Shown here one piece after another: positions 2,323 through 10,261 of a DNA stretch of 64,000 nucleotides (positions are counted from its first letter, which is position 1; each line of letters opens with the position of its first letter). The translations under genes and the position numbers were made by a program. The stretch is from contig OZ241456.1 of assembly GCA_965200875.1 (NCBI GenBank), positions 1,408,001-1,472,000 of the forward strand, in the 5' to 3' direction. The stretch comes from Bdellovibrionales bacterium. GTDB lineage: Bacteria; Bdellovibrionota; Bdellovibrionia; Bdellovibrionales; UBA1609. A model generated the notes under the pieces. It ran no database searches, was not told where the DNA came from, and was given only the letters and a program-made list of their open reading frames with translations.

Positions 2323-3016
2323 TTAATTTTTTGGTTCTTGAATTATTTTAATTTGTTTAATAATTTCGTTTTCTACACAGTTTTTATTTGATTTCTTATC
2401 CAAGAAATACAGAAAAATTTTGTAGTTAAATTTCCCGATAGATGCAACATTTTTTAGATAAAAAAGTCTTTTAACTTTTTTTGACAAATTAAGATAGTTT
2501 GTATGATAATTAATTTCTCCATCTTTTTTATGGCCGGAAAATATCAAGTCAATATCGAAGCTGTGTACTCCATTGGAATAAACATCATACGAGGTAGGAA
2601 TGCCAACATGAAGGTTGCCGTTTTCCAGAAATACAATAAGAGAGGTTTTATTTAATGTTTTTTCTATCATGTTCCGTGTTTCATTGACAGGTTCTATTTG
2701 ATGAAATAAATCAAAAATTTTAAGAACCTTAACAGGTTTTATAAACTGCAAAAACTTCCTATAAGATATGCTGTTACACAAACTAAAAGTAATCCCCTGA
2801 AGGACATCTGGCTGATGCACTCTGCAATTTGTTTGATATTGAAATAATCACATTTTAAATCAAAAAATAAACTACGACCGATATACAAGAGTATATAAAG
2901 AGAATAGGCAGGAATACCCATTGAGAGAAAATATTAATTTGTTTTCTACGCTGACTATGAATATAACCAAGATATGTAAAAAAGGAAGGGATGATAAAAA
3001 AAGCCAGTTCAAACAT
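2323..3016 (-). pseudogene. Frameshifted membrane-anchored hypothetical protein
   Basis: Three overlapping minus-strand frames join up: hydrophobic N-terminus from ATG 3016 (MFELAFFIIPSFF...), a second TM segment (2739-2860) and a soluble domain (2323-2750). Confidence 0.5.
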
Positions 3017-3052
3017 AAAAATATTACTAGAAATGAAGTTTAAATTATAAGA

Positions 3053-3256
3053 TTATTTTTGTTCGTCTTGAATCTCTTTGTATACTTCAGCCATTCTTTT
3101 TATTATTCTTTTTCTATTTTCTCGAAGGCTCTCTTCGTCCCCCTTAACTATCCCGCTAACTATACTACCTTCATAGGTGATTATGGGTTTGATCAATTTA
3201 ACTCCATCAACCACAATCTCTTCTCTATTTTCAAGTGAGGTTGGTTTTTTTTTCAT
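3053..3256 (-). CDS. Small hypothetical protein (67 aa)
   Basis: GGGGAG RBS before ATG 3256 (MKKKPTSLEN...); charged, protein-like composition. Confidence 0.6.
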   Translation of the reverse strand: MKKKPTSLENREEIVVDGVKLIKPIITYEGSIVSGIVKGDEESLRENRKRIIKRMAEVYKEIQDEQK

Positions 3257-3550
3257 TATTGATTCTCCCCTGACACAAAATTTTATTATAGCAGTAACTC
3301 TTGACTCGCTTTGATTTTTGCCATATTTGACATAATTAATTTTATTGTGCCAATTTTGACTTTGAAAATCAAGCCTTAAACCGGAAAAATAGAGACTAAA
3401 GCACCACAAAACCAAACTTTTCACTGTGATCTCACACTTTATTTGATTCAGCTTTTAATCTATCTCTTCTTTAATAGGCAAAAAAATTACCTAAACTTAA
3501 TGTGTGAAACCCGGCTGAAGCCATAGCAGATGAGATTACATATTGAATAA

Positions 3551-5971
3551 TCATGATATATTCTTTTTTACTAAAGATAAAACAAGCAAAGCATGAATAA
3601 CACAAACAGCTATCATCCTATTAAAATTTTCGGCAGGAAAGTGCCCGTGGCAAATCATGTTTCTTATGTTCAGCCCTCTTTTGTCGACAAATAAAACCTG
3701 AAAGTAATCCGGTACACTTATGTTGTTTTTAAAAAAATTAGTAAATATAGGGTCTCTGATAAGAGCACCAAAGGGTCTTAACTCAAAGCCTTTTTCTTTA
3801 GGAGAGCAGTCAGTCTGATAGATTTGACCTCCATTAACAGCTATTAAATGTCTGATGGCTGACTCAATTTGAGGCAAAAGTATAGAACAACTTGCAATAT
3901 AGTTTTCATCAAAAAAAAGCTTTAAGCCTTCTTTAATGATCTGATGATGTGCTTCTGGAAATACAGGTGACTTAAGCAAATGTTCTGAAAGAGTATGAGC
4001 ATTAAGAGATTTTGTTTTTTGTAGATGACTTAAACCCATATCAATAAAAATACAATTATAGCTAATTTCTTGAGATATATGCTGAACAATATGTCCTTCC
4101 AAGTCATCTTTTATAGGTCCTACTTCAGCTGTTGTTCTTCCTGTATGATCCATAATCTGATGAGAGAACATAAATCTGATAGGATGTTCTTTTGCGAGTG
4201 TACAAACTGTCTCTTGAGCTTTTTTTTTATCAGGAATAAAGTTTGTGGATATGACCAATAATGCTTCAGATAGAGAGTTTTTGTCTAATTTTTTTTGAAT
4301 TTGCTCCTGTGGCAGTGGAATAGCTACCGATACAGGTTTTAGCTCTTTTAAACTTTCTTTTTGCAAGTCACGCATTCTTGGTTCCAGTTCTTTTGCCTCT
4401 TCAGATAGTCCATACTGGCGAAGTATTTGTTCCACTTTTTTTAACATAGTAGCTCCGATCATTATTGGCAAAGGGCCATGTAAAAAAGAATCCCGGTATA
4501 TGAGTAAAACTCTTTTCATGTTTTCCTGATCATTTTTATTTTTATAATAGGGTGCTAATTTTACAACGATAAGCTCAACAGAGTGCGAATCAAAGGTGTT
4601 TGGGTCTTTAGCAGAAAAACATTTTAATTTTCTTTCAAGCTCTTCTATAATTTGCTTTTCTTGTTTTTTTTCCAAGGGGATTTTCTGAAATAAATTTTTA
4701 TCTCCTATTAAAAGATCATAAGAATACCCCCATGTTCCGGCTTTATCATCTTCAGAGTGTTTTTTTTCATACTTGATAATAATATCTCTTAAATACAAAA
4801 CTCTCTCCTTGTCATCGAGAGAGATAGCCAACCTTAAAGCTCTTTCCAGTTGTTTTTGTAAATGAGAACTTTTTTGGTCAATCTCCGCTTGCTGTATGGC
4901 TGAATCAATAAACCTACGCGCAATAACTATATCTGGCTTTTTGTTTCTGATTTTTTTTGAGAAATCCCATACCAACCCGCCATATCGGTATTGGAGAATC
5001 GGACTTTTTACTTCATCAGACCTTTTTTCCCAATAGTTTATCATTTCAGGTGTAATATCTTTAATATTGGGGTTAGATATAAGGTTCCCGGTTTCTTTGT
5101 CTGTGAAGGTAACAGGAGGTACATAGTGCAAGCCTTCCCAACCAAGAGTGGCTTTATCCGGTTGCCATGTTTCTATAAGAGAAAAAGCTGTCTTTTCAAA
5201 AAATAAATGAGGTATGGATTGTAAACGATCCTCACCGGTTGTTTCTTTTATAAACTCACGAATTTTATCATTAATTATATGCTCAATTAAAAAGTCCGGG
5301 GTTGTAAGTTCATTTAAAACTGCGTACAGATCTTGCATTATTTTTCTTTGGAAAAATTGCTCGACAAAGATTTTTTTTTGCTCTTGAATTTTTTTGCCAG
5401 TGTGTTTTATTTTATCCAAGGTCATTTTGGGATATTGAAAATAATCAGCTATTTTTTTTAAAACATCCCTTCCGGTGGTTTTGTTGTTTTCTATCCGGTA
5501 GACAGTGGAAGAGGAAATATCAAATAAATTGGCAAATTCCCTTATGGAAAGGCCCAAGCTCTTTCTGAAAGATCGTAAATCTTCCGCAGAAAACTTTTTT
5601 TGCTCTTGAACTGGTTCAAATACAAAAGGGGTGATAGGGCTTTTTTTTCCGAAGGCACTTAGCAACATAAAAGGATCTTTTTCAAAAGGACTTAGGCCCA
5701 CATCACGACAGTATTCCTTATAAGCCGGATTTTTTTGGGAAGGGATCCTGTCTGCAAAAGAGGGGAAAAGTTTTAAAGAAACATGCCGTGCTTTTTTCAA
5801 AGGCAAATCCGGTCCTATAGCAATAGGGTTTTCACTATAAAGATAAGCCTTGTCATACTCAAAAACAAACTTCCCTTTTTGCCGGCTTAACCGGCCTACA
5901 TACGAACGGGTTTTGCGTCTTTCCAAATAAAAATCCAACGGTTTATATAATAATCTGTTTTTAGTTTTCAT
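3551..5971 (-). CDS. Fusion of HipA N-terminal (HipS-like) domain + XRE HTH + DUF4209-type HEPN domain
   Basis: aa 10-120 VGRL..FVFEYD..IGPDLPL..LFPSFADRIP; aa 127-180 HTH (LRSFRKSLGLSIREFANLFDISSSTVYRIEN); C-terminal LLPQIESAIR...GLNIRNMICHG with an RxxxxH motif. Confidence 0.85.
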   Translation of the reverse strand: MKTKNRLLYKPLDFYLERRKTRSYVGRLSRQKGKFVFEYDKAYLYSENPIAIGPDLPLKKARHVSLKLFPSFADRIPSQKNPAYKEYCRDVGLSPFEKDPFMLLSAFGKKSPITPFVFEPVQEQKKFSAEDLRSFRKSLGLSIREFANLFDISSSTVYRIENNKTTGRDVLKKIADYFQYPKMTLDKIKHTGKKIQEQKKIFVEQFFQRKIMQDLYAVLNELTTPDFLIEHIINDKIREFIKETTGEDRLQSIPHLFFEKTAFSLIETWQPDKATLGWEGLHYVPPVTFTDKETGNLISNPNIKDITPEMINYWEKRSDEVKSPILQYRYGGLVWDFSKKIRNKKPDIVIARRFIDSAIQQAEIDQKSSHLQKQLERALRLAISLDDKERVLYLRDIIIKYEKKHSEDDKAGTWGYSYDLLIGDKNLFQKIPLEKKQEKQIIEELERKLKCFSAKDPNTFDSHSVELIVVKLAPYYKNKNDQENMKRVLLIYRDSFLHGPLPIMIGATMLKKVEQILRQYGLSEEAKELEPRMRDLQKESLKELKPVSVAIPLPQEQIQKKLDKNSLSEALLVISTNFIPDKKKAQETVCTLAKEHPIRFMFSHQIMDHTGRTTAEVGPIKDDLEGHIVQHISQEISYNCIFIDMGLSHLQKTKSLNAHTLSEHLLKSPVFPEAHHQIIKEGLKLFFDENYIASCSILLPQIESAIRHLIAVNGGQIYQTDCSPKEKGFELRPFGALIRDPIFTNFFKNNISVPDYFQVLFVDKRGLNIRNMICHGHFPAENFNRMIAVCVIHALLVLSLVKKNIS

Positions 5972-6038
5972 ATTTTTAATGTTACCTTTTTGGTTCAGGC
6001 TTTTTTAATGCCACTTTTTAGTTAAAGTCTTTAACTTC

Positions 6039-7031
6039 TTAGCTGTTACCTCTTTTTTTCAGTTTTTTTAAATCTTCCAAGCGATTTTTCAAATAATTGA
6101 CAAAGGATTTTTTTCTTTTCTCTGAAATTTCAGAGAGCTTTATCTCCTCCATTAATAAGGGAAATTGACGAATAACTTTTTTAGCAAACTTCAAACAAGC
6201 TGTTTCTAAATTTAACCTTTTAAATTCTTTCAGATAATCATTGGTCTTTGGTTCTTTTGAGTTAGAGGTCCAAATATAACCACTAAAGTTAAACTGGGGG
6301 CCCAGCATTTTTTCATCTTGCACTCCAAAATTAGAGGGATTATCATACATGGGAGCAAGCTGTCTTTTTTTGCCAGTGTCTATGATGCCTAAATTTCTAC
6401 CATGCCGATCTCCATTTCCAATAAAGGAATCAAAAAGGCAGATTTCTACAAATGTTTCCACATCTCTTAATCTGCTTGTTTTCTCTTGGATAACCTTTAT
6501 TAAGGTTTCACAATTATAATGGCTTTTAGGTACATATTTATAGAGATGGTGTAAGCTTCCAACAGTACCTTGCATAAAATTTTTAGTGACAAAAGTTATC
6601 AGCTTCTCTGACTCTTGTTCTTCTTTATTCATTTTAGTAGTCGTAGCTTTATTTTTTGTATTGCTCTCATCTGAAAACAGGATTAAATAATATTCCGGCA
6701 CCTTCAAATTCAGAAGAGAGGCTATCTGATTACAAAGATATTCCATAGCTGGCAAGTCAGGAAACCCTGGTTCCTCAACTTTTAAGATGTATTGTTGGTC
6801 TCCAAGTTTGGCTGAATATTTGCGATATCGACCATGATAAAAACTGTCTTTATTTGTTGTGAATGTGGCAGAATGAGAAGAGGAGTAAGATGTTGTTTTT
6901 TTGAAATCCAGGTCATAAAATTCAGACGAATCCTGTACAGCAAACCACTTTTGAAAGCAGTCTGTATGTAGACCATAAATACTTTGATGTTCAATGGATT
7001 TATGGCATTTAAAACATTTGTGTTTTTTCAT
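6039..7031 (-). CDS. HipA C-terminal-type (HipT-like) Ser/Thr kinase
   Basis: N-terminal CxxC..HxxC; G-loop region FYHGRYRKYS; YILK; PAMEYLC; FIGNGDRHGRN; LAPMYD. Confidence 0.92.
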   Translation of the reverse strand: MKKHKCFKCHKSIEHQSIYGLHTDCFQKWFAVQDSSEFYDLDFKKTTSYSSSHSATFTTNKDSFYHGRYRKYSAKLGDQQYILKVEEPGFPDLPAMEYLCNQIASLLNLKVPEYYLILFSDESNTKNKATTTKMNKEEQESEKLITFVTKNFMQGTVGSLHHLYKYVPKSHYNCETLIKVIQEKTSRLRDVETFVEICLFDSFIGNGDRHGRNLGIIDTGKKRQLAPMYDNPSNFGVQDEKMLGPQFNFSGYIWTSNSKEPKTNDYLKEFKRLNLETACLKFAKKVIRQFPLLMEEIKLSEISEKRKKSFVNYLKNRLEDLKKLKKRGNS

Positions 7032-7033
7032 AA

Positions 7034-7078
7034 TGTAGTCAATATACTACAAAATTATTTTGTAGTCAAATGACTATA
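7034..7078 (-). promoter_or_regulatory. Sigma70 promoter overlapped by two 18-bp palindromic operators
   Basis: Minus strand TTGACT(7069-7064)-17 bp-TATATT(7046-7041); palindromes TGTAGTCAATATACTACA (7034-7051) and TGTAGTCAAATGACTATA (7061-7078). Confidence 0.8.
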
Positions 7079-7311
7079 AATTTTTAAAGTAAGGACAAAA
7101 ATCAAGAATAATGGCCTTTATTCAAAGTTTTTTTCCAAAGTTTCAGATTAGAGAAGGTTTATAGAACATTGGTATTGAGATAAATACTGTCACATTTTTA
7201 ATAAAAACTTAATAAAAATGCGGTAAAGCTTGATTTGCTATTATTGACTTGTGAACCATTTTTCTTTATTCTGGATAAGTATAAATGAACCACATCCCCG
7301 GAGGAATGTCA

Positions 7312-7975: not shown

Positions 7976-8878
7976 TTAATCTACAACAACAAAACCGCTT
8001 ATCTCTTGTGAGATTAAATAATTCTGTTGTAGTTCTGTGACTTTCGCATCGGTAAAATTCGCCTTGCTCAAATAACGAGCCTTTTGCAAATGCCTCACAT
8101 GACGCAGATCCGCCTCAGTCAAATTCGCATTGGTAAAATCCGCCCCATTTAAATTCGCGTAACGCATATCTGCCCCAGTCAAATTCGCATTATTCAAATT
8201 CGCTTGCTGCAAAATTGCATTGAACAAATTCGCTTGTTGCAAATTCGTATGGCTCAAATTTGCCTCGTGAAACCTTGTATTGTGCAAATCCGCTTCACGC
8301 AAAATTGCATAGCTCAAATTCGCCTCGCGCAAAAATGACCCGCTTAAATTCGCTTCGGCTAAATTCGCTCCAACCAAATTCGCATTACGCAAATCCACAC
8401 TGTATAAATACGCCTGAGATAGGTTGCAATTATGGACACCTGGTTGCTTTATATATTCTTTATAATTATCGACATTACAGACTGGAGCACCAGTGCCAGC
8501 TGGAGTACTTGCGCCCGGTTGAGTACCTGCACCTGCTGGGTTAGTCCCTGCTTCTGGGTGAGTGCCTGCTTCTGGGTGAGTGCCTGCTTCTGGGTTAGTC
8601 CCTGCTTCTGGTTGAGTGCCTGCTTCTGGGTTAGTCCCTGTTTCCGTTGAACCACCTGCACCCGTGGGAGTACTAGCATCTGGTTTAGCATTTGCGCCGG
8701 TTGAACCTGCATCTTTTTTTTCACAACCTAAAGAAAATAAGCTTAAAAATAATAAAACCAGTATAGTTTTCAGAACAAAATTATTAAAGTGTGGAATCTT
8801 TATAAGACTGTTTTTGGTTTGGATAAAAGCTTCTCTCCAAATAAAATCTGTCACTATTATAAATTTCATCAGTTTCAT
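7976..8878 (-). CDS. Pentapeptide-repeat lipoprotein with a Gly/Thr/Pro repeat stalk
   Basis: AGGAGG RBS; lipobox SLGC; many A(N/D)Lxx pentapeptides. Confidence 0.9.
   Translation of the reverse strand: MKLMKFIIVTDFIWREAFIQTKNSLIKIPHFNNFVLKTILVLLFLSLFSLGCEKKDAGSTGANAKPDASTPTGAGGSTETGTNPEAGTQPEAGTNPEAGTHPEAGTHPEAGTNPAGAGTQPGASTPAGTGAPVCNVDNYKEYIKQPGVHNCNLSQAYLYSVDLRNANLVGANLAEANLSGSFLREANLSYAILREADLHNTRFHEANLSHTNLQQANLFNAILQQANLNNANLTGADMRYANLNGADFTNANLTEADLRHVRHLQKARYLSKANFTDAKVTELQQNYLISQEISGFVVVD
8535..8640. repeat. 18-bp coding tandem repeat encoding GT(N/Q/H)PEA, about 6 copies
   Basis: CCTGCTTCTGG recurs every 18 bp. Confidence 0.9.
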
Positions 8879-9142: not shown

Positions 9143-9442
9143 TTAAGAATTGTTTTTCAGCTTTTTGATCTCCTCTTCAGAAAGACCTGTCATCTCAGAA
9201 ATAAAAGAAAGCTTTAATTTGCTTTTTAGCATATTAAGTACCACTTCCTGACGACCTTCCTGATGACCTTCTTGACGACCTTCCTGTCGACCTTTCTGCA
9301 TGCCTTCTTGCATACCCTCTTGTAAACCTTCCTGACGACCCTTTTGCATACCTTCTTGTATTCCTTTTTGCATACCTTCTCTTAGACCTTTCTGCATGCC
9401 TTCTTGTATGCCCACTAATTTAATCTCTTCTCTTATGTCCAT
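9143..9442 (-). CDS. Putative intragenic short form (RpnS-like antitoxin, 99 aa)
   Basis: In-frame internal AGAGGAGG-TTAT-ATG (MDIREEIK...). Confidence 0.6.
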   Translation of the reverse strand: MDIREEIKLVGIQEGMQKGLREGMQKGIQEGMQKGRQEGLQEGMQEGMQKGRQEGRQEGHQEGRQEVVLNMLKSKLKLSFISEMTGLSEEEIKKLKNNS

Positions 9443-10261
9443 ATAACCTCCTCTTTTTAATAAACTTCTTTCTATGGCCAACTGCTCAACTCTTTTCCAT
9501 AATTCAACACTCACTCCACCCGCTGACTTCAAATAATCCACTGCACTTAATATCAAATCCTCTCGCTTTCCCGAAAAAACTGAAAACGCAGACACAAACT
9601 CCAACAACTCCGGCACACTCTTCTTTAAAAACCATATCTTGCTTAACAATGCTAATGCTCCACGGCTTTGAATGTTTGGATCCTTTAAAGCTTTTTGAAC
9701 TTGTGGATCATGGGTGTCCAACAACTTTAACTTGTAATCTAACATACTTTTACGAAAGGAAACAGGAATTTTATTAAAAAACAGTCCAAAAATGGCTTCC
9801 TGAAAAGAAATAGGCCAGCTCCAAGGCTTTTTTCCATGATAAAACACAATGGGAATAACAGCTATAATGTTGTCTGACTTCCGTTCATAGAGAAGAGTCT
9901 GATAGGATAACACCTGCCGGAAGAGATTTTTATTGTAAGAGGACTTGTGTTCCAGAAGGATACAGAACTGAAACTTGGCAGAAGGGTTGTCTTTAAGAGC
10001 GACTGTAAAAACTAAGTCTGCCCTTTTATCTTTTAAACTGTCTTTTTCCACTTTTAAAGTATCCCAGTCGCAGGCTGAAAATTCTTCTGGAGATAAGACC
10101 AGTTTAAAGATCTCTTTGGCAAATGCAATTTCTGAAAAAAATCTTTTAAAGAATCTATCGTGCAAGTTATCCAAAGTTTTGCCTGTAGACACTGCTATTA
10201 TTTTTTTCGCCTTTGATTTTTTCAATAATTTTTTTTGCACTTTAACTGTTTGTTTCGTCAT
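9143..10261 (-). CDS. Rpn/YhgA-family PD-(D/E)XK nuclease
   Basis: HDRFFKRFFS, RADLVF, LLEHKS, IPIVFYHG; C-terminal G(M/R/L)Q(E/K) repeats and ISEMTGLSEEEI. Confidence 0.93.
   Translation of the reverse strand: MTKQTVKVQKKLLKKSKAKKIIAVSTGKTLDNLHDRFFKRFFSEIAFAKEIFKLVLSPEEFSACDWDTLKVEKDSLKDKRADLVFTVALKDNPSAKFQFCILLEHKSSYNKNLFRQVLSYQTLLYERKSDNIIAVIPIVFYHGKKPWSWPISFQEAIFGLFFNKIPVSFRKSMLDYKLKLLDTHDPQVQKALKDPNIQSRGALALLSKIWFLKKSVPELLEFVSAFSVFSGKREDLILSAVDYLKSAGGVSVELWKRVEQLAIERSLLKRGGYMDIREEIKLVGIQEGMQKGLREGMQKGIQEGMQKGRQEGLQEGMQEGMQKGRQEGRQEGHQEGRQEVVLNMLKSKLKLSFISEMTGLSEEEIKKLKNNS

Follow-up and report, generated by a model that had tools for sequence, protein, structure and literature searches.

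A 64,000-nucleotide stretch of a Bdellovibrionales genome (assembly GCA_965200875.1, contig OZ241456.1, positions 1,408,001 to 1,472,000), called the window here, contains a cassette in which a gene for a short HipT-like kinase is followed by a gene for an 806-residue protein. This protein joins a HipS-like domain and an XRE helix-turn-helix (HTH) to a HEPN protein of the DUF4209 family. Judged from sequence, the kinase and the HipS-HTH part are a two-gene module that is widespread, has a conserved operator of two palindromes and usually carries no cargo. The reading that we favour, with some reservation, is that this pair is a self-repressing type II toxin-antitoxin chassis whose antitoxin bears at its C-terminus a phage-defence protein that is autonomous and can be exchanged.

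The initial annotation of this locus described a two-gene minus-strand unit with these domains and intact catalytic motifs, and this is borne out by the open reading frames (ORFs), Pfam matches and alignments. The kinase ORF is upstream, 67 bp from the 806-residue ORF, and each gene is single-copy in the two-contig genome of 1.87 Mb. In Pfam, the kinase matches HipA_C over residues 74-249 (69.4 bits) and has no HipA N-terminal domain. The longer protein matches Couple_hipA at residues 23-110 (37.8 bits, cut-off 22.5), HTH_3 at 132-181 (38.2 bits, cut-off 23) and DUF4209 at 702-796 (42.3 bits, cut-off 22.3). Matches in PADLOC were to PDC-M03A for the kinase (1e-18), PDC-M03B for the HipS part (2e-12) and PDC-S39 for residues 284-788 (8e-37). 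The RxxxxH motif reported at 3664-3647 is present there as RNMICH, residues 770-775.

The junction between HTH and cargo contains a run of nine A located 13 codons before Met212 (codon at 5338), and a TAA in another frame overlaps this ATG. It was therefore necessary to rule out an assembly error of one base. The earlier statement that the junction holds no stop is correct for the frame of the ORF, which is open throughout, and overlooks this out-of-frame TAA. A one-base shift at the run would end the HipS-HTH protein at its normal length, as expected if two genes had been joined by a homopolymer error, by a recent frameshift or by slippage that yields mostly free antitoxin. One contig from set X1 covers 2800-6750 with no differences or gaps and one from set X2 covers 4997-5550 with no differences; both cross the junction unchanged, with neither a stop nor a frameshift. 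No contig from X3 or X4 bridges the junction. The X1 and X2 contigs provide no independent support because they come from one sample, which is possibly the window's own source.

Recurrence of the fusion is the stronger evidence. A search with the 806-residue query returned 48 proteins. Two of them, P0003 (809 residues) and P0004 (801 residues), match 99% of the query length at 65-66% identity, and a third, P0007 (494 residues), shares the junction and has lost about 310 residues in frame; these three in-frame fusions are 65-67% identical to the query. A further protein, P0244, is a HipS-HTH protein that runs on into a 27-residue stub of the HEPN protein. In the fusion of P0007/G003 (genome G003), the A run, the ATG and the overlapping stop are all missing from the junction. 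Runs of at least nine A or T occur 395 times in the window's genome, and a second one lies inside the 806-residue ORF. From this, the in-frame HipS-HTH-HEPN fusion is real. The assembly-error version of the alternative is largely refuted, and any form of artefact or recent read-through is very improbable. We also considered whether the junction holds a slippage site or an internal start that is conserved, and dropped this, as these features are not kept in the G003 fusion. The fusion is thus not unique to this genome, and when we looked for it beside a kinase elsewhere, as the initial annotation had suggested, the kinase was directly upstream at two confirmed loci, the window and G003 (L023, the deleted form). 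In the G003 fusion (L023:8040-9524) the repeat half of the cargo is mostly deleted in frame at a short shared sequence and the HEPN motif is kept. In the window, 49 bp where the fusion gene ends (3514-3562) have an 86% copy at C1:1063258-1063306 and could mark a recombination end.

To find what else is attached to this antitoxin, residues 1-210 were searched against longer proteins. Among the 51 relatives obtained, 45 carry a STAND protein, four a HEPN protein and two an unnamed 235-residue domain. A near-length search with the HipS-HTH part gave 46 matches and, after five proteins with short coverage were dropped, the combined set held 92 proteins: 44 with STAND, four with HEPN, 31 solo and 13 with other tails. 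The STAND cargo matches PD-Lambda-4_A at 1e-19 to 1e-73 over most of the profile. In STAND proteins of at least 1400 residues, Walker A was found in 36/36, a nuclease pattern in 33/36 and a Walker B pattern in 32/36. Two of the STAND fusions are just 37% identical overall, yet both are fused. In the window's genus, every STAND match with an assembled N-terminus lies at a HipS-HTH locus (six genomes; two additional matches are fragments at contig edges), and no unfused copy with an assembled N-terminus was found in the 15 genomes. The STAND cargo had no match in the window's genome and none in 151 genomes of the order, a sample that holds no known positive and so carries little weight. The other tails include PDC-S32 in P0246, BrnA/CopG-like pieces in four proteins (below Pfam cut-offs) and unnamed ones.

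Comparison of trees shows that cargo has been exchanged between cassettes. On the HipS-HTH tree the window protein falls in a clade with STAND fusions (support 100/100), apart from the other three HEPN fusions, and holding the four HEPN fusions together was rejected by the approximately unbiased (AU) test (p 0.003; 39 of the 92 rows, quick model). By contrast, the cargo tree places all four fused HEPN proteins in a single clade, nested among 35 stand-alone relatives (SH-aLRT 100, quick tree). By rough pairwise counts, used here for all substitution rates, the HipS-HTH part is closer to two STAND cassettes (synonymous distance, dS, 0.58-0.65) than to the other HEPN cassette (dS 1.87). The discordant trees and these distances indicate that the HEPN fusion arose once and that cargo changed places at least once more. 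A transfer of HEPN onto a STAND cassette and a replacement of HEPN by STAND in the sister clade would both fit. We propose that the cargo is swapped by recombination where the HTH ends, leaving an Avs8-like STAND protein in most lineages and the HEPN protein in the window.

To learn how widely the carrier module occurs, we scanned GTDB genomes with a HipS-HTH alignment; 180 stretches matched and the best 79 loci were taken. These are from Bdellovibrionota, Chlamydiae, Legionella and other Gammaproteobacteria, Omnitrophota, Verrucomicrobia and more. A kinase match is present on the same strand within 1.5 kb upstream in 71 of these 79 loci; of the eight without one, two are at contig edges and three others have kinase fragments by profile. 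Both genes occur in 10 of the 15 genomes of the window's genus and are adjacent in all 11 genus cassettes. The genus genomes are not independent of the GTDB scan because they were drawn from the same collection. The HTH follows HipS in all 37 aligned relatives, and stand-alone HipS-HTH relatives end at about 201-228 residues, where the cargo junction lies in the window. The named close relatives belong to Bdellovibrionales or Oligoflexia. A search of a plasmid collection for HipS-HTH gave no match, and a metagenome scan with a junction-spanning query gave only one unrelated HTH match among 434 candidate stretches. At one locus, 1.8 kb downstream of the cassette, L031:6820-8111 holds a second pair, a small gene and a 319-residue gene, that looks HipS/HipT-like by eye.

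The region upstream of the kinase has a putative operator of two palindromes that overlies a putative promoter. The exact palindrome occurs once in the genome, and two of the three genomic sites with at most one mismatch lie in the operator. The palindrome pair is aligned and conserved in 11/11 genus cassettes. In four outgroup loci it is weaker in two and not evident in two, and at least two palindrome sites (up to three mismatches) were present in 16 of 18 loci checked. The promoter ranks first, tied at 10/12 consensus matches, among 14 promoter-like sites in 3300-7300; shuffled sequences average 13.0 sites. Since the number of sites is no higher than in shuffles, the case for the promoter is based on its position and conservation. 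It ends a few bases short of the kinase start codon, and the kinase transcript would be near-leaderless. The HTH probably binds the palindromes. By sequence, a kinase, a HipS-HTH protein and an operator over the promoter make up the layout of a type II toxin-antitoxin module with autoregulation. The initial annotation ended the element at 7078, which is the end of this operator, a feature that it did not mention.

The kinase has intact catalytic motifs and is under purifying selection. Its residues K84, E97, D208, H210, N213 and D230 are invariant in an alignment of 14 sequences, and the ratio of nonsynonymous to synonymous substitution (omega) is 0.07-0.24 against three relatives. The closest solved structure by profile is HipT(Lp) 8ezr (E 6.6e-17). 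Residues C6, C9, H22 and C25 near the N-terminus are also invariant and possibly form a metal site. The kinase at L021:11738-12838 has a 40-residue insertion in a variable loop. The window (6039-7100) has a mosaic pattern when compared with two STAND cassettes: identity is 83-91% over the promoter and the first third (5') of the kinase gene and 58-78% over the remainder of the kinase.

Models of the HEPN cargo structure were confident (pLDDT 96 for the N-terminal half and 96.6 for the C-terminal half). For the repeat half there were only generic matches to repeat-protein structures (Z 7-10) and no specific relative; it may be a sensor. For the C-terminal 140 or so residues, HEPN domains top the structural list, with 2hsb first (Z 8.7, root-mean-square deviation 3.4, 114 aligned), followed by AbiA 8oz7 (Z 8.6), sacsin HEPN (8.2) and Csm6 (7.9), all of which are modest scores. 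Foldseek gave no match at E <=0.001 for either model, and the cargo profile gave nothing meaningful against the sequences of solved structures. The whole 806-residue query has 2778 relatives at E <=0.001. Residues E703, N768, R770 and H775 are invariant in 149 aligned sequences, and the RxxxxH motif is present in 46/46 sequences. The fused HEPN halves are 66% identical, and the C-terminal half compared with that of the other HEPN cassette has a nonsynonymous distance (dN) of 0.20, a dS of 1.1 and an omega of 0.18. Four stand-alone HEPN genes of full length were inspected in the genus; all of them have defence genes as neighbours (Fic and PD-T7-4; R.HinP1I and a C5 methylase; an Eco57I-type enzyme; CBASS and TIR), and no Hip kinase ORF was recognised at these loci. 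These results suggest that the HEPN cargo is an autonomous sensor-effector ribonuclease (RNase) that works independently of the kinase.

This bears on the idea, put forward in the initial annotation, that the two genes form a dedicated two-toxin system, with the RNase gated by the kinase through binding or phosphorylation of the cargo. Kinase-RNase proteins such as Ire1/RNase L, and modified HEPN toxins, are analogies for it. The antitoxin domain would keep the kinase beside the cargo, and all of the catalytic motifs are intact, as such a system would need. However, unrelated cargoes alternate behind the same kinase, with a STAND protein in 45 of the 51 longer relatives; most loci outside the one Bdellovibrionales clade with cargo-bearing antitoxins carry none; and the HEPN protein is unfused in most relatives, including the 35 close ones, and lacks a recognised Hip kinase at the four inspected loci. 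In addition, HipT bound to HipS is inactive in the solved complexes described in available text of PMC10627512. With unrelated cargoes behind the same kinase and, in most cases, no kinase next to the HEPN protein, the kinase is unlikely to gate the RNase specifically, and we consider a dedicated two-toxin system improbable. The related suggestion that disruption of the complex releases two toxins at once is possible.

For the chassis reading, we suggest the following sequence of events. By analogy with HipBST, the HipS-like domain would bind and inhibit the upstream kinase. The fused HTH would then repress the shared promoter via the two palindromes, so that the long protein caps its own level. 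The helical-repeat sensor and HEPN RNase would act like their stand-alone relatives, with no need for the kinase. Having antitoxin, repressor and defence protein in one chain could provide dose control of a dangerous nuclease and, if the chain is destroyed, sequestered or no longer made, the promoter would be derepressed and the kinase freed as a second mechanism of arrest. The operator, the kinase linkage, the cargo tally, the long maintenance of the fusions, the swap and the autonomy of the HEPN protein all point this way, and on balance we lean toward this reading.

The serious rival is that the fusions are tolerated hitch-hikers. Under it, deletions in defence islands join the permissive C-terminus of HipS-HTH to downstream genes, each half would go on functioning, and the join provides only a borrowed promoter. 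The many unrelated tails, stubs and solo forms agree with this, as does the occurrence of both cassettes and stand-alone HEPN genes in defence islands. Outside one clade the module is nearly always solo (tails of less than 30 residues in 64/66 loci), and purifying selection on the halves says nothing of selection on the join. By contrast, the STAND fusion is kept across 45 clusters down to 37% identity, with no unfused copy in the genus as noted above, the HEPN fusion has survived a dS of more than 1, and the long cargoes that can be identified are all defence proteins. We consider hitch-hiking a possible but less probable explanation.

Several further observations weigh against the chassis reading. 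The first concerns the antitoxin. The HipS part matches solved HipS by profile (7czo, E 0.001; 7ab3_B, E 0.004), a single-sequence HipS query had no match among solved structures, and the domain is divergent. When aligned to 7czo by profile, it can be followed only up to the residue pair that precedes the inhibitory segment, just short of the Trp65 wedge site, where the family consensus has no Trp. HipS(Lp) also lacks a Trp65-type wedge residue, yet is described as neutralising its kinase. Second, long fusions are almost confined to one Bdellovibrionales clade: among the best 79 of the 180 matches they occur in nine of the 13 closest loci, with one more broken, versus one of the 66 remaining. 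Third, cargo is easily lost. Solo forms (31 of 92) are nested among fusions and another 13 proteins have short or odd tails, a STAND cassette is broken in G005, and the deletion in G003 and the stub in P0244 add to this. The BrnA/CopG-like tails look like deletion products, which fits a tolerated fusion. Finally, only three full-length HEPN fusions are known. The outlying long fusion is a Caedimonas record (L116:6133-7623), an apparently independent joining of HipS-HTH to a 289-residue domain of an unnamed family. The tails of L116 and P0223 have no mutual similarity and no Pfam or PADLOC family, and their Atlas neighbours are unnamed; by motif they may resemble PD-(D/E)xK nucleases.

A more specific version of the chassis reading is that HipS-HTH is a portable tag of 200 residues that makes any phage sensor-effector attached to it, whether an NLR-like Avs8 protein or a repeat-HEPN RNase, its own repressor and the leash of a kinase toxin. 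We hold this covalent guard only tentatively. If it is correct, oligomerisation of the cargo triggered by phage, or binding or destruction of the cargo by a counter-defence, would release the kinase and derepress the operon, and disabling the first defence would fire the second. Addiction to the cargo was rejected by reasoning. The antitoxin is N-terminal and truncation of the cargo therefore leaves it whole, and solo forms show that it is intact without cargo.

Cassettes tend toward defence islands, with AbiP2 and ShosTA in G003, type III restriction-modification and ApeA in G004 and type I restriction-modification in G010; no defence neighbours were present among the genes scanned around the G002 and G014 cassettes. 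In the window, directly after a purF-like gene, a DNA methylase ORF on the plus strand (1606-2226) matches only the second half of N6/N4 methyltransferase profiles and looks truncated. Upstream of the cassette on the minus strand are genes for a pentapeptide-repeat protein with a low-complexity linker (7976-8878) and a YhgA/Rpn-like protein (9143-10261). For tRNA-linked integration, no tRNA lies within 4 kb of the window cassette; tRNAs were found at two of ten loci scanned, and only that at L024 is near the cassette. Pieces from a close relative are present in a run labelled sponge metagenome; one of them has 20 differences over 704 bases.

Table 1. Features of the kinase and fusion cassette, in window coordinates.
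Feature	Position	Strand	Basis and remarks
HipT-like kinase gene, 330 residues	6039-7031	minus	ORF and Pfam HipA_C
Fusion gene, 806 residues	3551-5971	minus	one open ORF: HipS-like domain, XRE HTH, 595-residue helical-repeat/HEPN protein
HipS-like putative antitoxin domain, residues 1-122	5606-5971	minus	Couple_hipA, PDC-M03B
XRE HTH and helical tail, residues 123-210	5342-5605	minus	HTH_3; cargo junction comes next
Cargo N-terminal half, residues 212-539, helical-repeat (TPR-like) solenoid, candidate sensor	4355-5338	minus	structure model
Cargo C-terminal half, residues 540-806, HEPN domain about residues 667-805	3551-4354	minus	DUF4209, PDC-S39
Putative operator, two 18-bp palindromes 27 bp apart	7034-7051 (exact), 7061-7078 (one mismatch)	not applicable	repeat analysis
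Putative sigma-70 promoter, 10/12 consensus matches, 17-bp spacer	7041-7069	minus	consensus scan; under the operator

All of the parts are from known families, but their arrangement is absent from the literature searched. As the initial annotation had supposed, no described system with this architecture was found: full-text literature, with subscription journals and survey supplements mostly outside it, gave neither an antitoxin of HipS-HTH type nor a fusion of HipS with HEPN or Avs proteins. Our results add a widespread kinase-first HipS-HTH module to the organisations of Hip kinases and show that it is fused to phage-defence proteins that are exchangeable, one of them an NLR-like STAND protein. 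The natural solo, HEPN-fused and STAND-fused cassettes are a ready comparison for asking how infection releases Hip kinases from HipS and whether other defence proteins are guarded by toxin-antitoxin pairs. The HipS-HTH tag could also be used as bait, with the tails of P0223/P0230, P0253/P0255 and L116 as candidate new defence effectors.

As a comparison, in the HipBST systems of E. coli O127 and Legionella pneumophila, HipS neutralises HipT and HipB binds the promoter, according to the available text (PMC10627512; 10.1101/2022.11.26.518041). The present cassette resembles these in its short kinase without N-subdomain 1 and with the core motifs kept, in its XRE regulator and in encoding a HipS-like protein beside the kinase. 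It differs in having two genes rather than the three of hipB-hipS-hipT, with the kinase first, a single S-HTH chain and a large C-terminal cargo. Kinase-first modules with HipS alone or with HipS-HIRAN were described by Gerdes et al. (2021; PMC8262856), who propose that HIRAN is a sensor of phage DNA that frees the kinase; the text available from that paper gives ten Hip organisations and HipS-HTH is not among them. PDC-M03 is HipA with HIRAN (PMC13245101), and the available portions of PMC11706625 and PMC13245101 mention only HipA-HIRAN pairs. Like hipIN and PDC-M03, our cassette has a short kinase followed by a HipS-like gene and shares the sensor-on-HipS logic of the HIRAN proposal. Unlike them, it has an HTH in place of HIRAN with a complete sensor-effector behind it; no HIRAN match was found in the 806-residue protein at E <=0.1, and the PDC-M03B match covers about the first half of the profile. 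The antitoxin of hipJS is HipS alone, whereas here an HTH follows HipS.

The cargoes also have known counterparts. DUF4209 is the C6orf70 HEPN family, predicted to be active and found in operons related to restriction-modification and in TPR fusions, as far as the available text of PMC3710099 goes. The window's cargo is like DUF4209 HEPN and PDC-S39 proteins in its length of about 600 residues, its HEPN fold and its intact RxxxxH; these are normally encoded by a single gene, whereas here the protein is fused behind an antitoxin-repressor, after residue 210. Avs8A, formerly PD-Lambda-4_A, is described as an Mrr-nuclease STAND NTPase triggered by the major capsid protein (10.1101/2025.07.02.662641; 10.64898/2026.01.04.697583). 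It is only the sister cassettes that resemble Avs8 (PD-lambda-4), in having an Mrr-like nuclease and STAND NTPase, and they differ from it by the N-terminal HipS-HTH, the upstream kinase and the lack of a recognised Avs8B-like gene downstream. For such a partner, no same-strand ORF of at least 100 residues was found within 400 bp at L045, L048, L055 or L057, a search that smaller or more distant genes would fall outside, and a 107-residue ORF after the L052 fusion did not match PD-Lambda-4_B. In guard-type or fused defence toxin-antitoxin systems such as the retron-RecBCD guard, PrrC and CapRel, release of the toxin depends on the state of another defence component or on a sensor that is part of the antitoxin. 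Unlike these, the cassettes described here have an antitoxin that is covalently bound to a second, complete and exchangeable defence protein.

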